A stretch of 64,000 nt of DNA from a virus: positions 32,001 to 96,000 of IMG/VR virus record IMGVR_UViG_3300032235_000647; one strand, 5' to 3'. A program made the translations under genes and the position numbers. A model generated the notes under the pieces. It ran no database searches and was not told the origin of the DNA. It saw nothing but the letters and a program-made list of their open reading frames with translations. Positions 9,190 to 42,377 of the stretch are shown piece after piece; the first letter of the stretch is position 1; the number at the start of each line of letters is the position of its first letter.

Positions 9190-12100
9190 TTAGAATGTAC
9201 CACCATCGATAGTGTTTGAAGCTACGAATGAAGAACCATTCCATTGAATCATATCACCAGTATTTACAGCAACTACCGAAGTAAGTTCCTTAGTACCATT
9301 TGCTACTATGAATGAATTAGCACTTAAACCACCAATTGTCAAATCACCAGTGATTGAGACATCAACACCATTATCAGCAATTGTAGAATTTACTAATAAT
9401 CCGTTTGCTCCGATTACTTGAACTGAAGCAGAAGTTGGAGTTGAATTAAATCTTGCAAATTGTTTTTCCGAACCTAGTGCACCACCCATCCAATGGTCAG
9501 CTGTTGAATTCCACAACAACGAACCAGAAACGGTATTAGGGTTAGTTGCATCTTTAACTAATAAACCACCATTTGCTGCAGATGAACCATTTAGTTCGAT
9601 GATATTATCACCTAACTGAATTGTGGTTGAGTCAATAGTAGTTGTTGAACCTTGAACAAATAGATTTCCAGTTATAGTAACACTACCACCAACACTCAAA
9701 TTATTTTGAATTGAAGCAGTTGGTATTGTTACGGAATTTGGTAATCCAATGGTAACAGTACCACCATTACCTAATGTAACTGAACCACCAGTAATTTCGA
9801 TTTCATTTGTTGTACCTTGAATGGTTAATGCAGTATTTCCTTCAACTGCGGTACCCGATGTGGAACCATAATCTACTTGTAAGGAGTTATCTACACCATT
9901 TAGTGAAAGACCTATTCCTGCTAAATCAGAGTTTAAGTTGACTGCTCTTACACCATTTGTTTTAATTGAAACATTACCAGTTGTTACTGAGAAATCATCA
10001 GCATCAAATGAGGCAACACCTCTTGTAGATGTAGTAGCATTTGCAGCTGTAATTGTAATTGTATTGTTAGTTACTGCAGCTGATAATGAATTTGAACCAG
10101 TTACCAATAAAGTATCTGACAATAATGAAAGAGTGTCATTTCCAGTAGAACCACTAAGTCTTAAATCAGTAACTAAACCTGTTAATTGTGAACCATTACC
10201 TACAAATGAACCAGTAAATGTAGTTGTTCCAGTAGAATTACCAATATTATCAGCAGAAACTCTACCAGTACCAAAATTAGTTGCTTGATTAGATAATAAA
10301 GTTACAATTTGGGCAGAAGAAGAAACAACTGCATCTGCATTTAACTTAGTTTTGATTGTAGTGTCAATAGACGATGTAAATGATTCAATTCTGTTTAATC
10401 TACCAGCTTGAGAACCCGAATCGGTAGATAATTGATTTAATCTACTATCAACAGATGCAGTGTAAGTTGCAAGAGTATTATCTTTAGTTTGTTGAGAACC
10501 AGAGAAACTTTCTAATGAAGTTAATCTAGCAGACTGGGCAGTATTTACGGTTTCTAATGCACCAGTTGCAGAGGCTAATTCAGCTTGAGTAACAAATCCT
10601 GCATCAAGTGATGATGAAAATGCCTCTAAAGCAGTTAATCTTGTAATAGCACTACCACTTGCAGTTGATAATTGGTTTAATCTACTATCAACTGATGCAG
10701 TGTAAGTTGCAAGAGTATTATCTTTAGTTTGTTGAGAACCAGAGAAATTTTCTAGTGAAGTTAATCTAGCGGCTTGAGAACCTGAATCGGTAGATAATTG
10801 ATTTAATCTAGTATCAACCGAAGCAGTATATGTTGCTAATGTTGAATTTTTAGTTTCTTGAGAAGAAGTAAATGCCTCTAATGCAGTAACACGGGTTCCA
10901 ATTGAACCACCTCCACCTAATGAAGCTTCTACTGAATCTAATCTACTATCTACTGATTGTGAGAATGCTGCAGCATTACCAATACCTACAATAGATGACG
11001 CACTTACAGCACCATTAACATCTAATGCACCAGCGATAGTAATTTTAGTTGAACCAACATTTTGGGTCATGATTGAATCACCAATGTGATTTTCACCCAA
11101 AGCAACTTGAATAGACCCAGAAGTTATTCCTGATTCATTTCCAATAGTTCCTGTATTTTTAGGACCTGCAATTAAGATTGCTGAATTATATTCTTCACCA
11201 CTTCCACTTGGTTGTACATATAACCAATGGTTATTGAATGAATCCCATAATAATGAACCACTAACTCCTTGTCCTGAACCAGAATCTTGTACACTTAGCC
11301 CACCAAATCTAACAGCTGGAGTTGCAGTGTTAAGTACTATGTTATTAGTTCCAATATTTACCGAACTTCCAGTAATGTTTACTAGTGAAGACGAACCTTG
11401 AACAACTAAGTTTTGAGTAATAAATAAAGAACCAGTAATTGTTTGACTTCCATAAAATATGTTAGAACCAGTAGTTGCAAAAGTTGTATTTAAGTTATTT
11501 TGTGAAGAAGTAAATGATTGTATATTACTCAATCGATTATCAACTGAAGCAGTATAAGTTGCTAAAGTAGAATCTTTACTTTCTTGAGAAGCCGAGAATG
11601 CTTCTAATGAAGATACTCGTGAACCAATTGAACCAGCTCCACCAAGTGAAGTTTCAATCGTATCTAATCTACCATCAACTGAAGATGAGAATGATGTAAA
11701 TCCAGTTACACTACCAATTTGTACTTGAGATGAACCAGAAATTACTGTTTCAACATTTAATCTTGTTTTGATAGTTGTATTGATAGAAGATGTAAATGCT
11801 TCTAAATTAGCCGTTTCAACTTCTAATGCTGATAATCTTGTTAACGCTGAACCACTAAATGTTTCCAAATTAGCTGTTTCAATTTCTAAAAGATTTAATC
11901 TTGTAATAGCACTACCACTTGCAGTTGATAATTGGTTTAATCTACTATCAACTGATGCAGTGTAAGTTGCAAGAGTATTATCTTTAGTTTGTTGAGAACC
12001 AGAGAATGTCTCAAGTGAAGTTAATCTAGCAGACTGCGCAGTATTTACGGTTTCTAAAGCACCAGTTGCAGAGGCCAGTTCAACTTGAGTAACAAATCCA

Positions 12101-20238: not shown

Positions 20239-20592
20239 TTAATTTAAGTATTTTAATTTGTATAAAGTTTGATAAATTAACTTTTCTATTTCTTGTACTA
20301 TATTATCAATAAATGGGTCTTTGATTGGTCTTGCCTTTTCAATAAATTTTATGATTTTACCAAAATATTCAATTACTTGTTCTTTTGATTCGTATTGTTC
20401 GATTTTAGATACATTTTTATATTTTAGAATACCATATTTACCTTGATATGCCTCTGCAAGTTCATCGGTGATATCACCAACTGAATCATAATAAGAACCT
20501 AACGCTTTATGTTCTGCAAATGATTTCGTTTGTAGGTGAAAAATGTGAACTTGATTTACTGAATGCAGTAATACTGAAATTAAATCTTCCAT
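20239..20592 (-). CDS. Ferritin/Dps-like four-helix protein (DUF5856-like)
   Basis: HIFHLQTKSFAEHKALGSYYD...DELAEAYQGKYG, a His/Asp/Glu metal-ligand pattern. Confidence 0.7.
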   Translation of the reverse strand: MEDLISVLLHSVNQVHIFHLQTKSFAEHKALGSYYDSVGDITDELAEAYQGKYGILKYKNVSKIEQYESKEQVIEYFGKIIKFIEKARPIKDPFIDNIVQEIEKLIYQTLYKLKYLN

Positions 20593-21182: not shown

Positions 21183-21467
21183 TTATTTTTTAAAAACTGA
21201 TTCTTTCCATGCTTCATTCAATTCCTCTTTACTAAATCCATGTTCTAAAAAGAAAGGGAATAGTTTGGTTTTTTTCCACTCCGTTAATTCTTTATTGTAA
21301 TTTGAATTATGTACAGTTACTTGTCCTGCTGGTGTGTAGGTGTTACCCATATTAGTACGATTCCTTCGTTTTGGTGCAGGACTGATAAGAGATGAATAAT
21401 ACATCATCGCTCTTCGTAATCCTTCTTCATTTACAACTGTCAAAACTTTGGAAACTAAATCGTTCAT
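21183..21467 (-). CDS. Hypothetical small (early) protein
   Basis: 94-aa ORF with AACTCCC upstream. Confidence 0.6.
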   Translation of the reverse strand: MNDLVSKVLTVVNEEGLRRAMMYYSSLISPAPKRRNRTNMGNTYTPAGQVTVHNSNYNKELTEWKKTKLFPFFLEHGFSKEELNEAWKESVFKK

Positions 21468-21480
21468 AGTATAGGGAGTT

Positions 21481-21702
21481 TTATTTCAATTTATAGGAGA
21501 ATAATGTACCACAATCATCATCATCCAAACTATCCTCCACAACGGTAATCGTATCACCAATTATGGATTGAAGTTTATTTACATCTACTCGTTTCCAATA
21601 TCCAAATCGGAGAAACATCCGAGTAGTACCAACTACATTATCTACTTTGTACTCACCGAATTCGGCTTGGATTTGTTCGTGGAGAAGGGAAGAAATATTC
21701 AT
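21481..21702 (-). CDS. Hypothetical small (early) protein
   Basis: 73-aa ORF directly downstream of promoter repeat 1. Confidence 0.65.
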   Translation of the reverse strand: MNISSLLHEQIQAEFGEYKVDNVVGTTRMFLRFGYWKRVDVNKLQSIIGDTITVVEDSLDDDDCGTLFSYKLK

Positions 21703-21739
21703 AATTTTAGAGGTTAGGGGTTTAATTTTTATTACTTAA

Positions 21740-21771
21740 CAAATATATAAAAAAGACCTGAATAATCCAAG
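21740..21771 (-). promoter_or_regulatory. Bacteroidetes-type sigma70 promoter, repeat 1
   Basis: CTTG-N20-TATATTTG on the minus strand (consensus TTTG-N19-21-TAnnTTTG), with an overlapping inverted repeat aaaagac/gtctttt. Confidence 0.8.
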
Positions 21772-21788
21772 TCTTTTCGAAAATATTT

Positions 21789-21998
21789 TTAATATTTTTT
21801 TGCTGATTCAAGGTGTAGTAGTATTGTTTTTAATCCACCTTTTAGATATCCCGCCTCAAATGCCAGTTGAGACATCAATTCAGGAGAATGTTCCTTAGAA
21901 GCAGGTTCGGCCTCAGTCAAGGTAGAGTGGATTGTAGATTCAATCGAATTAACTAATTCAATTAGTTGGGCTTTGGTGTAAGTTCGGTAATTATACAT
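21789..21998 (-). CDS. Hypothetical small (early) protein
   Basis: 69-aa ORF with AACCCC upstream. Confidence 0.6.
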   Translation of the reverse strand: MYNYRTYTKAQLIELVNSIESTIHSTLTEAEPASKEHSPELMSQLAFEAGYLKGGLKTILLHLESAKKY

Positions 21999-22018
21999 AT
22001 TGTTTAGGGGTTTAAAGG

Positions 22019-22258
22019 TTAAACATCAGCAGATGCCAACCAGAGGTCATAAATAACATTATATTCAGTAGTAGTAATTTCGGATAAGTTCCAAAATACT
22101 CGTTCTCTAATCAAACTATCACTTACTCCGATGTATTCGTACACATCTTCGTAGTTATTCAAAACCCTAACCAAACCATCAAAAGTGGCACTAGGGTTAA
22201 TTTCATTACCCAATTCATCTGTTGGGAAGTTTGCGAGGTAGTATTCTCTGATATTCAT
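22019..22258 (-). CDS. Hypothetical small (early) protein, 79 aa
   Basis: Start moved to the ATG at 22258 (MNIREYY), because the track's longer start lies inside promoter repeat 2. Confidence 0.65.
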   Translation of the reverse strand: MNIREYYLANFPTDELGNEINPSATFDGLVRVLNNYEDVYEYIGVSDSLIRERVFWNLSEITTTEYNVIYDLWLASADV

Positions 22259-22292
22259 ATTTTTAAGTTTTAGTGTCTCTCTCATTACAGAA

Positions 22293-22324
22293 CTAAAATA
22301 CAAAGAAAAGCCTAGAATTCCAAA
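22293..22324 (-). promoter_or_regulatory. Bacteroidetes-type promoter, repeat 2
   Basis: TTTG-N20-TATTTTAG with a conserved AT-rich upstream block. Confidence 0.75.
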
Positions 22325-22359
22325 TGTTTAGGAAAATATTTTTAAATTATTTTTAAAAT

Positions 22360-22452
22360 AAAAACCCACCACACTTGAGACCGAGAGAGAGAGAGTTAGT
22401 GTGTGGTGGGTGACCCAGGATGGATACTTTATATAGGAGAGAATGGTCTCAA
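22360..22452 (-). other. Structured RNA element: 11-bp stem plus possible 8-bp pseudoknot, ending in a T-run
   Basis: acccaccacac (22364-22374) pairs with gtgtggtgggt (22401-22411). The loop segment ttgagacc (22375-22382) is complementary to ggtctcaa (22445-22452). Confidence 0.45.
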
Positions 22453-22489
22453 AAAATAGGAGAACCTTGTATATCGCTAGAGTAGCATC

Positions 22490-22702
22490 TCAATCGCGAT
22501 AAGGGTTTTGTGGATGTGATTCCTTTGATGATTTTCCTATCATCATTACCAATACGAAACTGATAAGAGAACTCACCACCACTACTTCAAATGGGTGTCT
22601 TGCCCCTAACAAGACAATATCCCAGAAGAAGTAGGTGATGGGTTCAATGAAAAGGAGAAAACTAATAAATAAAACCAAGAAAACAAACATCAAATATTTC
22701 AT
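22490..22702 (-). CDS. Small membrane protein (two predicted TM helices)
   Basis: Two hydrophobic stretches; AACCCCC upstream. Confidence 0.6.
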   Translation of the reverse strand: MKYLMFVFLVLFISFLLFIEPITYFFWDIVLLGARHPFEVVVVSSLISFVLVMMIGKSSKESHPQNPYRD

Positions 22703-22715
22703 ATCGTATAGGGGG

Positions 22716-22889
22716 TTATTTTTTTCTATTTCTTAATTGCAGTATAAGTTGGTATCCATCAAACTCGGCCTCTTTAAGAGAGAATCCATTTTGTAAGTTC
22801 ATCAATCTAGTTGATTCGTAGATTTTTCGTTCTTCAGGAGTCAATGACGCGAAGAATTCAAAGTTGGGGGAGTTGTTGTTAGTACTCAT
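22716..22889 (-). CDS. Hypothetical 57-aa protein (not in the ORF track)
   Basis: MSTNNNSPNFEFFASLTPEERKIYESTRLMNLQNGFSLKEAEFDGYQLILQLRNRKK; tight packing and AACCCC upstream. Confidence 0.6.
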   Translation of the reverse strand: MSTNNNSPNFEFFASLTPEERKIYESTRLMNLQNGFSLKEAEFDGYQLILQLRNRKK

Positions 22890-22890
22890 G

Positions 22891-23010
22891 TTATGAGGGG
22901 TTGATTAGTTCGTATTCAGTATAGGGTTCTAGTATCCCTGATTCATTTAATCGGTTCTTGGTGATTTCTCTAACCCAGCCGAGTCCGTTGATGTAGAAGG
23001 TGTCTTTCAT
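22891..23010 (-). CDS. Hypothetical 39-aa protein (not in the ORF track)
   Basis: MKDTFYINGLGWVREITKNRLNESGILEPYTEYELINPS; first ORF after promoter repeat 3. Confidence 0.5.
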   Translation of the reverse strand: MKDTFYINGLGWVREITKNRLNESGILEPYTEYELINPS

Positions 23011-23032
23011 ATCTTTATCTCTTATTACAATA

Positions 23033-23064
23033 CTAATGTACGAAACTTTGCCGAGTATTCCAAA
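23033..23064 (-). promoter_or_regulatory. Bacteroidetes-type promoter, repeat 3
   Basis: TTTG-N20-TACATTAG followed by the conserved GTAATAAGAGATAA. Confidence 0.75.
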
Positions 23065-23086
23065 TGTTTTAGGAATTATTTTTAGA

Positions 23087-23236
23087 TTATTTACTTTCTT
23101 TTATTTTATCAATGAACTTTCTCATCGCTTCATGTATTCTTTGGACAGGGTACGGACCTTGTTCTGTCTCATCCCATAGTTGCCAGTCTTCATACGTGAT
23201 ATAATAAAATTCTTCAAGTTGCTCTATAATATTCAT
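23087..23236 (-). CDS. Hypothetical 49-aa protein (not in the ORF track)
   Basis: MNIIEQLEEFYYITYEDWQLWDETEQGPYPVQRIHEAMRKFIDKIKESK; starts 3 nt after the previous stop. Confidence 0.55.
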   Translation of the reverse strand: MNIIEQLEEFYYITYEDWQLWDETEQGPYPVQRIHEAMRKFIDKIKESK

Positions 23237-23239
23237 ATC

Positions 23240-23404
23240 TTATCCTTTTAAACTTATTGTTAAATCAAACTGCTTTTGAATAAAATAATCTAACTTGTGA
23301 TGGATATGGTCTATTTCTCTAATATCGCCACTCTTTACGGCATCCATTAATTTATAAGTCCAATATTCAATTTTACTCATATAACCATTTTCGTAAGTCT
23401 TCAT
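23240..23404 (-). CDS. Hypothetical 54-aa protein (not in the ORF track)
   Basis: MKTYENGYMSKIEYWTYKLMDAVKSGDIREIDHIHHKLDYFIQKQFDLTISLKG; starts 1 nt after the previous stop. Confidence 0.6.
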   Translation of the reverse strand: MKTYENGYMSKIEYWTYKLMDAVKSGDIREIDHIHHKLDYFIQKQFDLTISLKG

Positions 23405-23405
23405 A

Positions 23406-23555
23406 TTAATTCAATCCTAGTGTCCAAACTCCTTCTTCCATTTGATTGACGAAGTGTCTTCTCGTCATTACTCTTTCTACTCCATTAGGGAATAGAACCA
23501 AGACCATAGAGTGGCCGTTGTAGAGCCAGTGTCGGGTGATGTGTGGTTGTGTCAT
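23406..23555 (-). CDS. Hypothetical 49-aa protein (not in the ORF track)
   Basis: MTQPHITRHWLYNGHSMVLVLFPNGVERVMTRRHFVNQMEEGVWTLGLN; first ORF after promoter repeat 4, AACCCC upstream. Confidence 0.55.
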   Translation of the reverse strand: MTQPHITRHWLYNGHSMVLVLFPNGVERVMTRRHFVNQMEEGVWTLGLN

Positions 23556-23585
23556 ATCTTTTAGGGGTTATCTCTTATTACTTTA

Positions 23586-23617
23586 TAAATGTAGTAAAAA
23601 AACCTGAATAATCCTAG
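23586..23617 (-). promoter_or_regulatory. Bacteroidetes-type promoter, repeat 4 (degenerate)
   Basis: CTAG-N20-TACATTTA; spacer and flanks nearly identical to repeat 1 (aaaagactaggattattcagg). Confidence 0.6.
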
Positions 23618-23635
23618 TCTTTTACCAAATATTTT

Positions 23636-23914
23636 TTAATCTACTGGATAAAATTTTACACTCAATATTACTTCGGCCGGCTTGGTTGCCAATACTGTCT
23701 CCACATACTTATTAGCCCGTTCTCTTGCACCAAAGTGTCCAAACTCCATTACATCAAAAAATTTCAGATTTACTTTGTACAATTTTTTAGGAAATCTACC
23801 ATCACCATAGTATACTCTGGTCTCTATCTTCTCTCGTTTTACATTAGGAAGTTTCATTAGAGAAGTGATTTTATTAGAGGAAGCAGATACGGAGAAGAAA
23901 TCAAAATCGTTCAT
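23636..23914 (-). CDS. Hypothetical small (early) protein
   Basis: 92-aa ORF after promoter repeat 5, AACCC upstream. Confidence 0.65.
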   Translation of the reverse strand: MNDFDFFSVSASSNKITSLMKLPNVKREKIETRVYYGDGRFPKKLYKVNLKFFDVMEFGHFGARERANKYVETVLATKPAEVILSVKFYPVD

Positions 23915-23951
23915 ATTAGTAAGGGTTTAAGGTTTATCTCTTATTACAATA

Positions 23952-23983
23952 CTAATATAGGTAAAAAAACCCGTAATTCCAAG
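23952..23983 (-). promoter_or_regulatory. Bacteroidetes-type promoter, repeat 5
   Basis: CTTG-N20-TATATTAG followed by TATTGTAATAAGAGATAA. Confidence 0.75.
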
Positions 23984-24016: not shown

Positions 24017-24044
24017 AAAAAAAAGGGATGATTTCTCATCCCTT
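24017..24044 (-). terminator. Rho-independent terminator insulating the early island
   Basis: Minus strand AAGGGATGA-gaaa-TCATCCCTT followed by a T-run. Confidence 0.85.
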
Positions 24045-25485: not shown

Positions 25486-26019
25486 TTATATATTTGAAAT
25501 TATTTGATTTATTTTTTCAGAATACAGCGGATGGTTTTTATATTGAATAAGCAAATTATGATAAAATTCTAATTTATCTTCAATCCGTTGTCCATACGGT
25601 TGAGAAGTATCCCATAATTCTAAATTTTCTATTCTATTATCGGTTTTTATACCATTTCTGTGATGTATGTTCTGATTTTTAGTAAGTGTAACTCCATAAT
25701 ACTCTTCATACACAACTCTATGTTCTAGTTTACCTCTATTTTTACCATGTTTTATCACATTATAACCTCTACTACTGATACTACCATTACCACCTTTCCA
25801 TCCAAAGTTATTTGAACCACTCATGCGTTCTTTGGCAACCTCTTTATTATAACATCCACATGATTTTACAATACCTCGTGTTAAATCTGATGTTAGATGT
25901 GTTTTAATCGTACCACACTCACAAACACACTCCCATTTCTTTTGTTTTCTACCATTGTTGGTAATCCAAACTGGTTTGATAACCTTAAATCTATTAAATT
26001 GTTTGTTAGTTAAATCCAT
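25486..26019 (-). CDS. HNH homing endonuclease
   Basis: WECVCECG...SCGC zinc motif and EHRVV...IHHRNGIKTDNRIENLEL HNH motif. Confidence 0.9.
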   Translation of the reverse strand: MDLTNKQFNRFKVIKPVWITNNGRKQKKWECVCECGTIKTHLTSDLTRGIVKSCGCYNKEVAKERMSGSNNFGWKGGNGSISSRGYNVIKHGKNRGKLEHRVVYEEYYGVTLTKNQNIHHRNGIKTDNRIENLELWDTSQPYGQRIEDKLEFYHNLLIQYKNHPLYSEKINQIISNI

Positions 26020-26023
26020 ATAA

Positions 26024-26054
26024 CTAATATACGATTTTTTTAGCAGTTTTCAAA
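26024..26054 (-). promoter_or_regulatory. Bacteroidetes-type promoter giving a near-leaderless HNH transcript
   Basis: TTTG-N19-TATATTAG ending 4 nt before the ATG at 26019. Confidence 0.55.
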
Positions 26055-26059
26055 ATATT

Positions 26060-26701
26060 TCACCATTTTTTTCTATTTTCTTCCCAAGTAATCATTCGTA
26101 AGTTTTCCATCTTGCCTATTTCATCTGCAGGTATTCCTTTTTCCCAGCCATCATTTATAGAAACAACATGGTCTATTTGATATGCTCCTATTACACCATT
26201 CCTACCCCGTTTATCAAAGTTTGGTAATGTTGTTAAATCATTTCTATAAGTATATTTCCAAACTTCTCTCTTGTAAAATTGTTTTTTGGGATATTTTTCT
26301 ACATATTCATCCCACGATGAGAAACCTGCTTTAGTTGCTCTCATTTGTTTAATATGTTCTTCAGTTATATTATTGATAAATGTTTTACCATATTTAATTG
26401 TTGCACAAGATATGCATAATTTCTTACCTCGTATTCCATTATCTCTACTCTTTTCAGATATATGGTAAATTTTAGTATCACATGATGGGCAAAATCTGTG
26501 AAATGGTTTGTTTATTTCATTCAATTTATTTCGTAAATGAGGTTTCCATCCCAATTCCATTTTTTTGTGAACAATCTTGCTATTTTGTTCTGATTGACAC
26601 GATTTACATTTAGAATTTCTCTTTTTTGCATTATACCAACTTCTTTTATTGGTATATTCAATTTCACTATTACAAATAGGACAATTTCTTATATTTGTCA
26701 T
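26060..26701 (-). CDS. Putative HNH-type homing endonuclease with N-terminal zinc ribbons
   Basis: CPIC/CKSC and CPSC/CISC pairs; C-terminal IDHVVS...ENLRMITWEENRKK. Confidence 0.7.
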   Translation of the reverse strand: MTNIRNCPICNSEIEYTNKRSWYNAKKRNSKCKSCQSEQNSKIVHKKMELGWKPHLRNKLNEINKPFHRFCPSCDTKIYHISEKSRDNGIRGKKLCISCATIKYGKTFINNITEEHIKQMRATKAGFSSWDEYVEKYPKKQFYKREVWKYTYRNDLTTLPNFDKRGRNGVIGAYQIDHVVSINDGWEKGIPADEIGKMENLRMITWEENRKKW

Positions 26702-28439: not shown

Positions 28440-29528
28440 TTATTTAATATTTGCTAATTGTTTGAATCTTTCAGCTAAAGCATTGCTTTCAGAAATAATC
28501 TCCTTCTTAGGAGCAGTTGAAGCAACTGGCTTAGATGCAAATGATTCGGTTAATTTGGTTTGTTTTACTTTTTTAGATGTACCACCCATTTTAAGTGATT
28601 CAGCTAAAGTAGAGAATACTAGTTTTACTTCTCTAACATTACCAGTTCTGTCTAATGTTTCAACAACTTTGTGCTTTTGCTCATTTGTCAAATCATAAGA
28701 ACGGAATAATTTGTTAGTGTAAAGTAATTTAGCGTTCAATAAGTTTACTTCATTAATGGTTTTCTTTAATGATTTGATTACTTTGTAAGCTTCTTCAAGT
28801 TCGGCTTCTTTTTCAGCCATTTCAGCTGCCATTTCTTCACCGTTTTCTTCTTCTTCAGAAACTTCTTCGTCATCACCATATCCCATTTCTCTCAAGATTT
28901 CGTCTAAATCGATTCCATCTGCTGCAGGCATTTCTTCTTCAGATTCTTCTTCATGCATTTCTTCGTCATCCTCTTCGTTCATTTCGTCTTCGGATTCTTC
29001 TTCGTGCATTTCTTCTTCCTCTTCTTCATGCATTTCTTCTTCACCTTCTTCTTCAAGTTCAGATTCCAATTCTCTGATGATTTCTGCTAAATCGAATTCA
29101 TCTTCGTCTTCTTCCTCTTCTTCAGGTAAATAAGATTGGGTTTCACCCGGTACTTCATCCTCGTCACCTTCAGATACAACATCATAGTCTTCTTCTTCTT
29201 TGCCTACTTCTGCTGTTTCTACTTCGGTATCAGGATTTCCTTTTGCTAATTCTGATGAGCTGTTAGCATCATCTGCTGGTTGCTTATTATCGCCAGTTCC
29301 AATATCAGATGCATCTTGATCTGGAGCTTCGCTTCCATCTGAATACTCTTCGTTTACTTCCTCTTCGTCATCCATATCTTCCATTTCTGCCTGGATTCTT
29401 CTGGATAAAGCGGCTTGTAATCTTGGAGCAAATGCTTCTTCTAGTGCGATTTTGGCGTTTGCAATTGCAGTTTCTCTAACGGCTTTGGCATCAGCAATAG
29501 CTTCTTTCAATAATTTTGAATTTGCCAT
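28440..29528 (-). CDS. gp22: Prohead core scaffold protein, T4 gp22-like
   Basis: Highly acidic coiled-coil protein immediately upstream of the capsid gene. Start placed at MANSKLLKEA (ATG 29528) after AGGAAGG. Confidence 0.8.
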   Translation of the reverse strand: MANSKLLKEAIADAKAVRETAIANAKIALEEAFAPRLQAALSRRIQAEMEDMDDEEEVNEEYSDGSEAPDQDASDIGTGDNKQPADDANSSSELAKGNPDTEVETAEVGKEEEDYDVVSEGDEDEVPGETQSYLPEEEEEDEDEFDLAEIIRELESELEEEGEEEMHEEEEEEMHEEESEDEMNEEDDEEMHEEESEEEMPAADGIDLDEILREMGYGDDEEVSEEEENGEEMAAEMAEKEAELEEAYKVIKSLKKTINEVNLLNAKLLYTNKLFRSYDLTNEQKHKVVETLDRTGNVREVKLVFSTLAESLKMGGTSKKVKQTKLTESFASKPVASTAPKKEIISESNALAERFKQLANIK

Positions 29529-29750: not shown

Positions 29751-29999
29751 TTACTTTTTATTCTTTTTACCACTATTATACTCACCACTTGCCATTCGTT
29801 CCAACATAACTTTTCTTTGGTTTTCGCGAATAGCCTTTAATTTAGTAGTTCGTCTAACAGTTTTTGGTTTTGTAAATTCTTTTCTATCTCTCAATTCAAG
29901 AAGATGTCCTGAATCGTTTACTTTCTTTTTAAAAACCTTGAGTGCCTTTGCAATATCTCCGTTTTTAACTATAACCTTAATTAGTGCTGTTTTTGCCAT
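29751..29999 (-). CDS. rpsU: Phage-encoded 30S ribosomal protein bS21
   Basis: 82 aa, basic; VIVKNGDIAKALKVFKKKV..SG...ELRDRKEFTKPKTVRR matches the bS21 signature (ALxxFKK...ExRxRxxFxKP). Confidence 0.9.
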   Translation of the reverse strand: MAKTALIKVIVKNGDIAKALKVFKKKVNDSGHLLELRDRKEFTKPKTVRRTTKLKAIRENQRKVMLERMASGEYNSGKKNKK

Positions 30000-30042: not shown

Positions 30043-30384
30043 TTAAGAACCTTTTCCTGTTCTAGATTTTTTACCACCAGTATGTGTAGATACATTTATT
30101 GGTTTTTTTCCTTGGCCTGGTGATTCGGAACCTCCTCTACCTGTCTTGTTTTGTGCTGCTCTTTTTCTACGAGTTGCAGATTCTTTTTCTTTTTTACTCA
30201 TAGTTTTTGCTTTTGCAGCAGGGACACACTTTGCATATCCACTCTTTTCTCCGCTCGTTCCACAAGGAGGATGTTTTCCACCAACTTTTTTACCAATATT
30301 AACCCACTTGGATTTGAACCAATTACGAAGGTCTTCATTGGTGGTTTGTTGAGATATTTCTTGTAGAATTTGATTGAGTTTCAT
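30043..30384 (-). CDS. Basic conserved phage protein, putative internal head protein
   Basis: MKLNQILQE leader; EDLRNWFKSKWVNI...PCG...YAKCVPAAKA motif recurrent in phages. Confidence 0.7.
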   Translation of the reverse strand: MKLNQILQEISQQTTNEDLRNWFKSKWVNIGKKVGGKHPPCGTSGEKSGYAKCVPAAKAKTMSKKEKESATRRKRAAQNKTGRGGSESPGQGKKPINVSTHTGGKKSRTGKGS

Positions 30385-30539
30385 TAGTCCTTACATTTTT
30401 TCCAACCACCACCCTTACCTTTGTAGTTTTTTGCAGCCCATCCATTTGCATAAGCAGAAGGATATACATCAAACTTCTTTTTTGCTGCTGCTTTGGATGC
30501 AGACCATTTTTCAGGGTCAGTTGGGCAATTCTTTTCCAT
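30384..30539 (-). CDS. 51-aa basic domain (KFDVYPSAYANGW), stand-alone or a -1 frameshift extension of the upstream gene
   Basis: MEKNCPTDPEKWSASKAAAKKKFDVYPSAYANGWAAKNYKGKGGGWKKCKD; its stop overlaps the next ATG (TAATG); the frame is open back to the A10 run. Confidence 0.7.
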   Translation of the reverse strand: MEKNCPTDPEKWSASKAAAKKKFDVYPSAYANGWAAKNYKGKGGGWKKCKD

Positions 30540-41957: not shown

Positions 41958-42377
41958 TTAGTTTACAAGTAATACACCAACTGCTATAACACCAACAATT
42001 GTTCCCACCTTATATAAAAAAGTTTTTCTCTTTTCTGATTTCAATTCCTTTAATAGGGATTCGGATTTTTCTCGTTCTAACTTAAATTGCTCATCTTTCT
42101 GTGTGATGATATAATCCAAATTAGTAATTTTAGAATTGAGAGTCAAAATTATTTCATCTTTAAGTACTAATTTTTGATTTGTTAATGAAAGAACTTTTTT
42201 AGTTTCTTCTAACTCAATGAGTGCACCATCCCCTTTAATTAAATCTTTGATGATTAATTTTGCAGTAGGAATTTTTAGTGCTACAATAGTATCAGTTTGA
42301 GTCTGATTCGTAACGGTCTGTGAAAAACTTGTTAAGGTCACTAAAATTAAACTTATTAACAGAATTAACTTTTTCAT
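41958..42377 (-). CDS. Signal peptide + coiled coil + C-terminal TM protein (spanin-like candidate)
   Basis: MKKLILLISLILVTLTSFS|Q, a heptad-rich middle and a hydrophobic C-terminus; overlaps the upstream gene by 86 nt. Confidence 0.55.
   Translation of the reverse strand: MKKLILLISLILVTLTSFSQTVTNQTQTDTIVALKIPTAKLIIKDLIKGDGALIELEETKKVLSLTNQKLVLKDEIILTLNSKITNLDYIITQKDEQFKLEREKSESLLKELKSEKRKTFLYKVGTIVGVIAVGVLLVN

Follow-up and report, generated by a model that had tools for sequence, protein, structure and literature searches.

What can stand in the place of the Shine-Dalgarno (SD) sequence in a phage that probably depends on ribosomes blind to it? Bacteroidia ribosomes ignore SD sites; the features known to tune where they initiate are limited to adenines and low structure. 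The question is raised by an island of small open reading frames (ORFs) in a viral DNA stretch of 64,000 nt, referred to here as the window, which comprises bases 32,001-96,000 of the 130,194-nt IMG/VR virus record IMGVR_UViG_3300032235_000647 (estimated completeness of the record 65%). Upstream of seven of these ORFs a preliminary description of the sequence had noted a run of cytosines, AACCCC, close to where an SD sequence would sit, and had regarded it as a class-specific leader signal. The analysis presented here confirms this observation in a stronger form than originally stated and supports the class-specific leader signal. The element, with the consensus A-A-C-C-C-C-U, lies at a nearly constant distance before the start codons of one class of phage genes, and AACCCCT matches no known start signal. 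Coordinates refer to the window unless stated otherwise.

Position and enrichment of the C-run

The seven C-runs noted originally were all confirmed, and all belong to the minus strand; none of the ORFs behind them has a start codon ahead of the ATG given (Table 1). The cytosines occupy positions -8 to -12, close to the range of -8 to -13 given originally. At 22889 the C-run overlaps the last codons of a preceding 39-aa ORF, and at 22702 it abuts the stop codon of the preceding ORF. The copy at 21467, AACTCCCT, is on sequence grounds the weakest of the seven, and was graded so because a close relative (L029) has AACTCCTT at this position.

As a hexamer, AACCCC is not over-represented in the window (12 matches compared with 19.6 expected), and CCCC is scarce on the coding strand of the record, with 45 copies as compared to 116 on the other strand. 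Of the 13 AACCCC copies on the gene strand of the record, five end 1-12 nt before a called ATG (0.16 expected, p=2.9e-7); the island leaders hold eight of the 13, starting 13-21 nt before the ATG. Under a strict definition of the motif (at least three Cs followed by T, last C 5-9 nt before the ATG), it is present in front of 8/18 island genes as compared to 0/111 other genes of the record (Fisher p=2.9e-8). Thus, the positional enrichment that had been named beforehand as a test holds in this record. Displaced copies precede two more island genes, and three more copies were found in a second island of small genes outside the window, at 16.7-17.5 kb of the record.

The spacing was analyzed in 465 distinct initiation regions from this record and from fetched relatives, a collection that was partly picked by the motif pattern and is hence biased. 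Among 55 C-runs lying 3-16 nt before the ATG, 41 end at 6-8 nt (15, 15 and 11 cases at 6, 7 and 8 nt, respectively), and any other spacing between 0 and 13 nt accounts for at most three cases. A minor peak at 14-16 nt corresponds to second tandem copies; such tandem arrangements, with a period of 6-9 nt, occur in eight distinct leaders. The unbiased tests are the comparison of island and other genes in the record given above and the orthologues of the 92-aa protein described below, which were found by protein alone.

Table 1. Elements of the small-gene island and related features (window coordinates; U1-U5, promoter units).
Feature	Position	Strand	Context
AACCCT	23922..23927	(-)	8 nt before ATG 23914; 92-aa ORFan 23636-23914
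AACCCCT	23563..23569	(-)	8 nt before ATG 23555; 49-aa ORF 23406-23555
AACCCCT	22896..22902	(-)	7 nt before ATG 22889; 57-aa ORF; no promoter unit upstream
AACCCCCT	22710..22717	(-)	8 nt before ATG 22702; 70-aa ORF; no promoter unit upstream
AACCCCT	22006..22012	(-)	8 nt before ATG 21998; 69-aa ORF; internal, no promoter unit
Tandem AACCCCT + AACCTCT	21709..21722	(-)	before ATG 21702 (CCCC at 14 nt, CCTC at 7 nt); 73-aa ORF
Degenerate copy AACTCCCT	21473..21480	(-)	6 nt before ATG 21467; 94-aa ORF; internal
Promoter unit U1	23952..23982	(-)	TTGGAAT-N16-TATATTAG, then conserved GTAATAAGAGATAA box
Promoter unit U2	23586..23616	(-)	TAGGATT-N16-TACATTTA
Promoter unit U3	23033..23063	(-)	no motif; ATG 23010
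Promoter unit U4	22293..22323	(-)	leader without C-run; ATG 22258
Promoter unit U5	21740..21770	(-)	overlapped by terminator-like hairpin 21750-21778 (composite promoter-terminator)
Terminator-like hairpin + T-run	24023..24044	(-)	just upstream of U1
Hairpin CCCACCACAC...GTGTGGTGGG + T-run	22355..22410	(-)	upstream of U4; read directly, missed by terminator scan
bS21 gene	29754-29999	(-)	PF01165, E=1.4e-12; between capsid-region genes
Intergenic AAAGGGGGGTAGGGGGGTAG (contains UAGGGG)	~65,765 (record 97,765; 1.7 kb past the window end); L008 ~3750	(-)	after late-promoter-like site

Conservation and distribution

Homology to the 92-aa protein alone identified 38 loci with 18 distinct upstream sequences, some of them promoter-proximal and some located after different genes. 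The C-run is found 5-8 nt before the ATG in 16 of the 18; one further sequence has it at 14 nt and one has only CCTC. Within this family, pairwise identity is 1.00 at the final three Cs, at the T next to them and at the AU that precedes the AUG, as compared to 0.36-0.60 for the other leader columns and 0.69 for codon position 3, while 11 distinct spacers occur among the 16 sequences. Judged by these identities, the C-run is kept by selection beyond the level of third codon positions.

Furthermore, the C-run precedes at least 12 unrelated protein families. The exact 22-mer leader of the ORF starting at 23555 is present in 18 other IMG/VR viral contigs ahead of four unrelated genes, and CCCCTATACGATATG from the leader of the ORF starting at 22702 also stands before an unrelated gene in L132. 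Orthologues of the ORF starting at 21998 in L024 and L020 keep the C-run in different contexts; in other families the motif has been gained and lost among orthologues. The C-run is hence an optional module.

The 16-mer AACCCCTAAAAATATG was found in 46 viral contigs as compared to 21 for a reversed control, and 41 of 47 matches are followed by an ORF of 40 aa or more. Altogether, the motif is concentrated in this record and in fragments of related islands. A complete relative of 252 kb (G004) has 3-4 C-run sites. In another relative (G001), whose island is encoded on the opposite strand from the majority of its genes, the motif keeps its orientation relative to the genes that it precedes. C-run sites are at control level in G003, G005 and phage T4, and ORF analysis of the first 50 kb together with a pattern search of the whole record revealed no such motif in Flavobacterium phage immuto. 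The flanks of gp23 from 80 relatives contain the motif at one locus only; these are late regions and therefore uninformative. In the literature on C-rich leaders or start signals of phages and of Bacteroidetes or Flavobacterium, including the work on phage bS21 (PMC9723584), we found no description of the motif.

Relation to promoter units

Alignment revealed a repeated unit of about 90 nt upstream of eight genes, of which five are in the window and three belong to the second island. Its components are an A/T-rich stretch, a promoter-like element T(T/A)GGAAT-N16-TAnnTT(A/T)(G/A) whose geometry (31 nt) is identical across units, the conserved GTAATAAGAGATAA box, and then either the C-run or nothing. 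The leader following U3 equals that following U2 minus exactly CCCCTAAA. The promoter reading rests on the alignment of these repeated units and not on a simple sigma-70 scan, which showed no overall enrichment (9 sites compared with 17 expected). The host-type promoters suggest that the cassette genes are expressed early. No Rfam family was matched in the island. The 70-aa ORF is followed by some 135 nt of non-coding DNA (22355-22490, minus strand) with a (CT)n tract and the strong CCCACCACAC...GTGTGGTGGG hairpin, which could be a 3' untranslated region or a small RNA.

The distance from promoter to C-run varies between 18 and 27 nt, that from C-run to ATG is constant at 6-8 nt, and four copies in the window (before 22889, 22702, 21998 and 21467) lack a promoter unit. 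Duplication of leader DNA alone, which had been named beforehand as an argument against a signal, does not explain the motif, because of these four promoterless copies, the varying promoter distance combined with a fixed ATG distance, and the orthologues in differing contexts.

The C-run might nevertheless have no function of its own and represent a conserved 3' edge or microhomology of mobile cassettes that is homogenised by recombination. Cassettes of a similar type, the promoter early stem-loops (PeSLs) of T4-type phages, are known to mediate such shuffling (PMC4122927), identical leader ends (CCCCTATACGATATG, CCCCTTTAATATG and CCCCTAAAAATATG) stand before unrelated genes in different contigs, and truncated leader remnants without promoter exist (L145, L158). 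However, homogenisation would keep the flanks, yet the flanks vary more than third codon positions and the C-run does not; the spacers differ, as seen in the 92-aa family, and seven nucleotides are probably too few for homologous exchange. We thus consider this explanation very unlikely. Exceedingly improbable, in our estimation, is a signal at the level of DNA, whether an operator bound by a DNA-binding regulator or a pause site close to the promoter. A G/C run in DNA of 32% G+C would be an easy protein target, and some copies do lie 18-27 bp downstream of promoters, but neither the promoterless copies nor the varying promoter distance at fixed ATG distance would be expected, and the motif is invariably oriented with the coding strand, even in G001, where the island is inverted.

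Composition and predicted structure of the start regions

Base frequencies were compared between 41 distinct motif-bearing start regions and 403 regions without a C-run. In the motif-bearing regions, C is found at -11 in 73%, at -10 in 98%, at -9 in 100% and at -8 in 76%, followed by U and an A/U spacer. Adenines are frequent at -13 (93%), -12 (63%), -6 (46%) and -3 (73%), and A-2 and U-1 reach 88% and 90%, respectively, as compared to 52% and 47% in other initiation regions. U at -1 pairs with A37 of the initiator tRNA. G is absent (0%) from -14 to -4, a segment in which it makes up 10-20% in the 403 regions without C-run; the latter have about 45-55% A and 47% U at -1. The earlier remark that the run resembles the anti-SD rather than the SD sequence is borne out, as it is pyrimidine-rich, lacks G and cannot pair with the anti-SD. 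The C-run is also predicted to be accessible: its calculated probability of being unpaired is 0.90 as compared to 0.57 for the corresponding positions of 264 other initiation regions, and the mean predicted minimum free energy is -2.5 kcal/mol for motif-bearing regions and -5.3 kcal/mol for the others.

The known start determinants in Bacteroidia are upstream adenines (PMC6847099, PMC9976891). In the tuf leader of F. johnsoniae, the replacement UCCC at -14 to -11 is reported to have reduced expression of green fluorescent protein by 90%, as compared to 60% for UUUU; the UCCC mutant also removed A-12 and A-13 and overlaps the position of our motif only at -11/-12 (PMC6847099). The C-run could be a cis-acting attenuator without a specific reader, which replaces favourable adenines, lowers initiation and keeps potentially toxic take-over proteins at a low level. 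The ten-fold lower output of the reported UCCC mutant and the optional occurrence of the motif among orthologues are in line with this idea. However, many sequences could weaken a start, so that an invariant CCC(C)U at one spacing over at least 12 families argues for specific recognition; moreover, the leaders are otherwise optimal, with A-13, A-3, U-1 and little structure. On balance, we regard simple attenuation as clearly unlikely.

Separation from the late gene class and the phage bS21 protein

The sequence ATATTTATA occurs in the whole record in 28 copies on the gene strand and three on the other strand; 23 copies lie at most 60 nt upstream of a called ATG, compared with 1.7 expected. From this distribution we read it as a probable late promoter; examples are found in the regions upstream of 26701, 20592 and 20134. 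It is often followed by SD-like sites of the TAGGAGA type about 10 nt before the ATG, and AGGAG-type sites are enriched before start codons (9/100, p=3.6e-6). Between the genes with a C-run and the late class, defined by the late-promoter-like ATATTTATA and SD-like sites, there is no overlap: the two genes that fall into both groups carry GGAGACCC and not the motif. The motif is thus confined to small ORFan genes in cassettes with host-type promoters, apart from the late class, as expected for a class-specific leader signal.

A gene for the ribosomal protein bS21 is present in 5/5 related records tested. In all five of these proteins, the residue aligned to the masking Tyr54 of Bacteroidetes is Arg or Lys (Arg in the phage studied here), while all 61 phage bS21 proteins of PMC9723584 are reported to have an aromatic residue at this place. 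Judging from the aligned residue, the earlier suggestion that the element is excluded once the anti-SD has been freed would fit a phage bS21 with Arg in place of Tyr54 and late genes with SD-like sites. The bS21 gene itself has neither a C-run nor an SD-like site upstream.

How the C-run might be read

Tight but slightly flexible spacing to the AUG, independence of promoters, coding-strand polarity, predicted accessibility and the otherwise positive start features of the leaders all suggest that AACCCCU acts in RNA and is read in initiation. We therefore tentatively favour, without calling it probable, a reading in which AACCCCU would be a single-stranded element of the translation initiation region, located at -8 to -12 and 6-8 nt before the AUG, that is recognised on or next to the platform of the 30S subunit while the AUG is in the P site. 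It belongs to small ORFan genes in PeSL-like cassettes which lie among the late genes of a bS21-encoding, T4-like lineage, probably of Bacteroidota. On SD-blind host ribosomes the element may set, in a positive or negative sense, start-site use and efficiency for its gene class, which would thereby be marked apart from the SD-led late genes.

Several observations weigh against reading at the 30S platform. The reported UCCC mutant (PMC6847099) suggests that C-runs near this place can inhibit, and the 90% loss weakens the original suggestion of an enhancer for ribosomes with an occluded anti-SD. The element is optional, given that no copy is present at 8/18 island genes, that it is gained and lost among orthologues, and that the U3 leader differs from the U2 leader just by the loss of CCCCTAAA. 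Tandem copies would bring no obvious gain to a ribosomal contact of fixed geometry. The 3-4 sites in G004 and their absence from immuto argue against a general requirement, and the type of bS21 does not track the abundance of the motif. Finally, small shares of the stretch were found in two metatranscriptome runs, as contigs that give neither 5' ends nor strand nor expression level.

A more specific version of platform reading starts from the bS21/bS18/bS6 pocket, which holds the 16S 3' tail in Bacteroidia ribosomes. The C-run, written as A-CC(C/U)C-U, might be an mRNA copy of the anti-SD tail that docks into this pocket or competes for it, providing an SD-independent anchoring by protein contacts at SD-like geometry, which the phage bS21 with its Arg in place of Tyr54 would later abolish or re-tune. 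If true, this would be a new way for mRNA and ribosome to recognise each other; we regard it as a conjecture with very little likelihood.

The main rival, rather unlikely in itself but close to the favoured reading, is that the C-run is an operator for a trans-acting RNA-binding protein of phage or host, or for an endoribonuclease, which would shut off or degrade the cassette mRNAs as a class by analogy with RegA and RegB of T4. The spacing would then be fixed because the site must overlap the ribosome footprint and the AUG. Conservation runs from -14 to the AUG and reaches -1 and -2, which might reflect a site overlapping the start codon in the manner of RegA operators: A-2 and U-1 are high, and they are invariant in the 92-aa family. 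The element is restricted to one class, optional, modular, gained and lost among orthologues, and single-stranded according to prediction, and tandem copies with a period of 6-9 nt would raise avidity. Inhibition by a C-run near this place in F. johnsoniae (PMC6847099) would also be in agreement with an operator.

The searches for such a factor point the other way. Searches of G000-G005, among them the complete G004, found neither RegA (PF01818) nor RegB (PF10715), whereas both were recovered from T4, the positive control (E=2e-75 and E=1e-69, respectively). S1 is known for its preference for poly(C), and KH domains can bind poly(C); family searches found no KH_KhpA-B and no S1 domains. Nor was there a CSD homologue; the only hit was sub-threshold and antisense and was disregarded. 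Among the island proteins, Pfam and PHROG searches gave no family of known function, and a spacing that tolerates +/-1 nt suits an element tethered to the P site better than a protein site made of two rigidly placed parts. Thus, of the original suggestion that the C-run tags messages for a phage repressor or RNase, the fit to a class-restricted, optional and single-stranded element stands, while a RegA or RegB candidate protein was not obtained.

An RNA partner was considered as well. The intergenic AAAGGGGGGTAGGGGGGTAG element (Table 1) is G-rich and matches no Rfam family. Its exact 17-mer AAAGGGGGGTAGGGGGG occurs in 108 IMG/VR contigs with a G+C content of 0.21-0.72 and unrelated flanks, and is often preceded by CCCCCCTTT, with which a hairpin results. 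As a complementary partner of the C-run it was rejected: neither G001, of which 139 of 145 kb were covered, nor G004 nor a syntenic contig of a metagenome-assembled genome (MAG) contains it, and low-GC contigs with AAAGGGGGGTAGGGGGG show no C-run peak before start codons.

The phage, its probable host and neighbouring genes

The window has a G+C content of 32%, and all called genes but two are on the minus strand. Family searches identified T4-like hallmarks, namely a Gp23-type major capsid protein, a T4-type portal and a T4-type large terminase. The nearest cultured phages by capsid protein are Microcystis phage Mel-JY01 (54.4%), Flavobacterium phage immuto (53.5%) and Rhodothermus phage RM378 (39.9%). 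A host among the Bacteroidota is likely, because the best match of the phage bS21 among solved structures is a Bacteroidetes-type bS21 and freshwater myoviruses with bS21 beside virion genes have been assigned to Bacteroidetes (PMC9723584). A close bacterial relative of the phage bS21 was not found by protein search. Families of T9SS tails gave no match in any sequence searched, a result without bearing on the host.

Predicted secreted proteins with a glutamine right after the likely signal-peptide cleavage site are encoded at 41961-42377 (minus strand), at record position 11279 (minus strand) and in G004 at 28729 (plus strand), with the residues ...FSQ, ...YSQ and ...YGQ at the cleavage point. 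We take a glutamine at this place to be a Bacteroidetes trait, which lends weak support to the host assignment. The phage epimerase has 84% identity to a contig of a MAG labelled Pelagibacterales. This contig (C6 of G006, L196-L199; 23 kb, G+C 27%) is collinear with the record at about 98-80 kb; it does not identify a host, as we read it as a syntenic phage fragment that was binned with a bacterium.

The island is flanked by HNH endonucleases and the capsid gene on one side and by a head-tail adaptor on the other. For the 92-aa island protein, structure prediction gave a mean predicted local distance difference test score (pLDDT) of 58, too low for a fold search. Two endonuclease-like genes, one HNH_3 and the other zinc-ribbon Lar-like, lie between the island and the capsid gene (25489-26701, minus strand). 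A gene with a late-promoter-like site at 20242-20592 (minus strand), immediately downstream of the island, encodes a Dps-like protein (phrog_858, E=9e-25). Two adjacent ORFs of 51 and 113 aa at 30046-30539 (minus strand) match positions 1-39 and 47-107 of the DUF5872 profile and may be a split or frameshifted gene.

Comparison with known systems

Overall, a conserved and position-locked C-run fills the SD slot of one gene class in a phage that has its own bS21 and late genes with SD-like sites. Read by the ribosome, the C-run would be a new start signal; with a phage factor as its reader, it would represent a new class-wide control of messages in the role of RegA and RegB without their homologues. 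In both cases the finding bears directly on the open question why aquatic phages encode bS21, and mutations can be aimed at a defined sequence, for which Flavobacterium reporter and in-vitro initiation systems exist.

With the SD sequence the C-run shares the slot, the spacing tolerance (last base 6-8 nt before the AUG), the predicted single-strandedness and the location at the 3' end of a promoter cassette. It differs in its anti-SD polarity (CCUCC-like), which precludes pairing with the 16S 3' tail, and in its limitation to one gene class, whereas late genes of the same phage carry AGGAG-like sites. SD-independent initiation regions of Bacteroidia resemble the motif-bearing leaders in the upstream adenines at -3, -6 and -12/-13, the lack of G and little structure; in contrast, a conserved C-run at -8 to -12 is not among the determinants described, and the one C-run tested, UCCC at -14 to -11, was inhibitory (PMC6847099). 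The T4 RegA and RegB systems have in common with the C-run that a short class-wide signal lies in initiation regions of messages of a T4-like phage that are early, or in our case presumably early. Their sequences are unrelated, however, homologues are lacking here, and the target of RegB is the SD sequence itself (GGAG), whereas the motif contains no G.

In architecture, the cassettes correspond to the PeSLs of T4-type phages, which surround small ORFans in variable regions and have an SD sequence and a start codon at their end (PMC4122927). Here, too, repeated composite units of A/T-rich stretch, stem-loop or terminator, sigma-70-like promoter of fixed spacing, ribosome-site slot and ATG are found next to small ORFans, in a part of a T4-like genome that is variable and lies between core late genes, and the same units stand before different genes in relatives. 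The same leader before four different genes and the orthologues in differing contexts might reflect gene shuffling of the kind that PeSLs are associated with between close relatives. Unlike in PeSLs, the -10 region of the phage cassettes reads TAnnTT(A/T)(G/A), which we take to be closer to the -7 box of Bacteroidota. The C-run is also found on internal genes without a PeSL, and in the cassettes of this phage the slot of the SD sequence holds AACCCCU or nothing.

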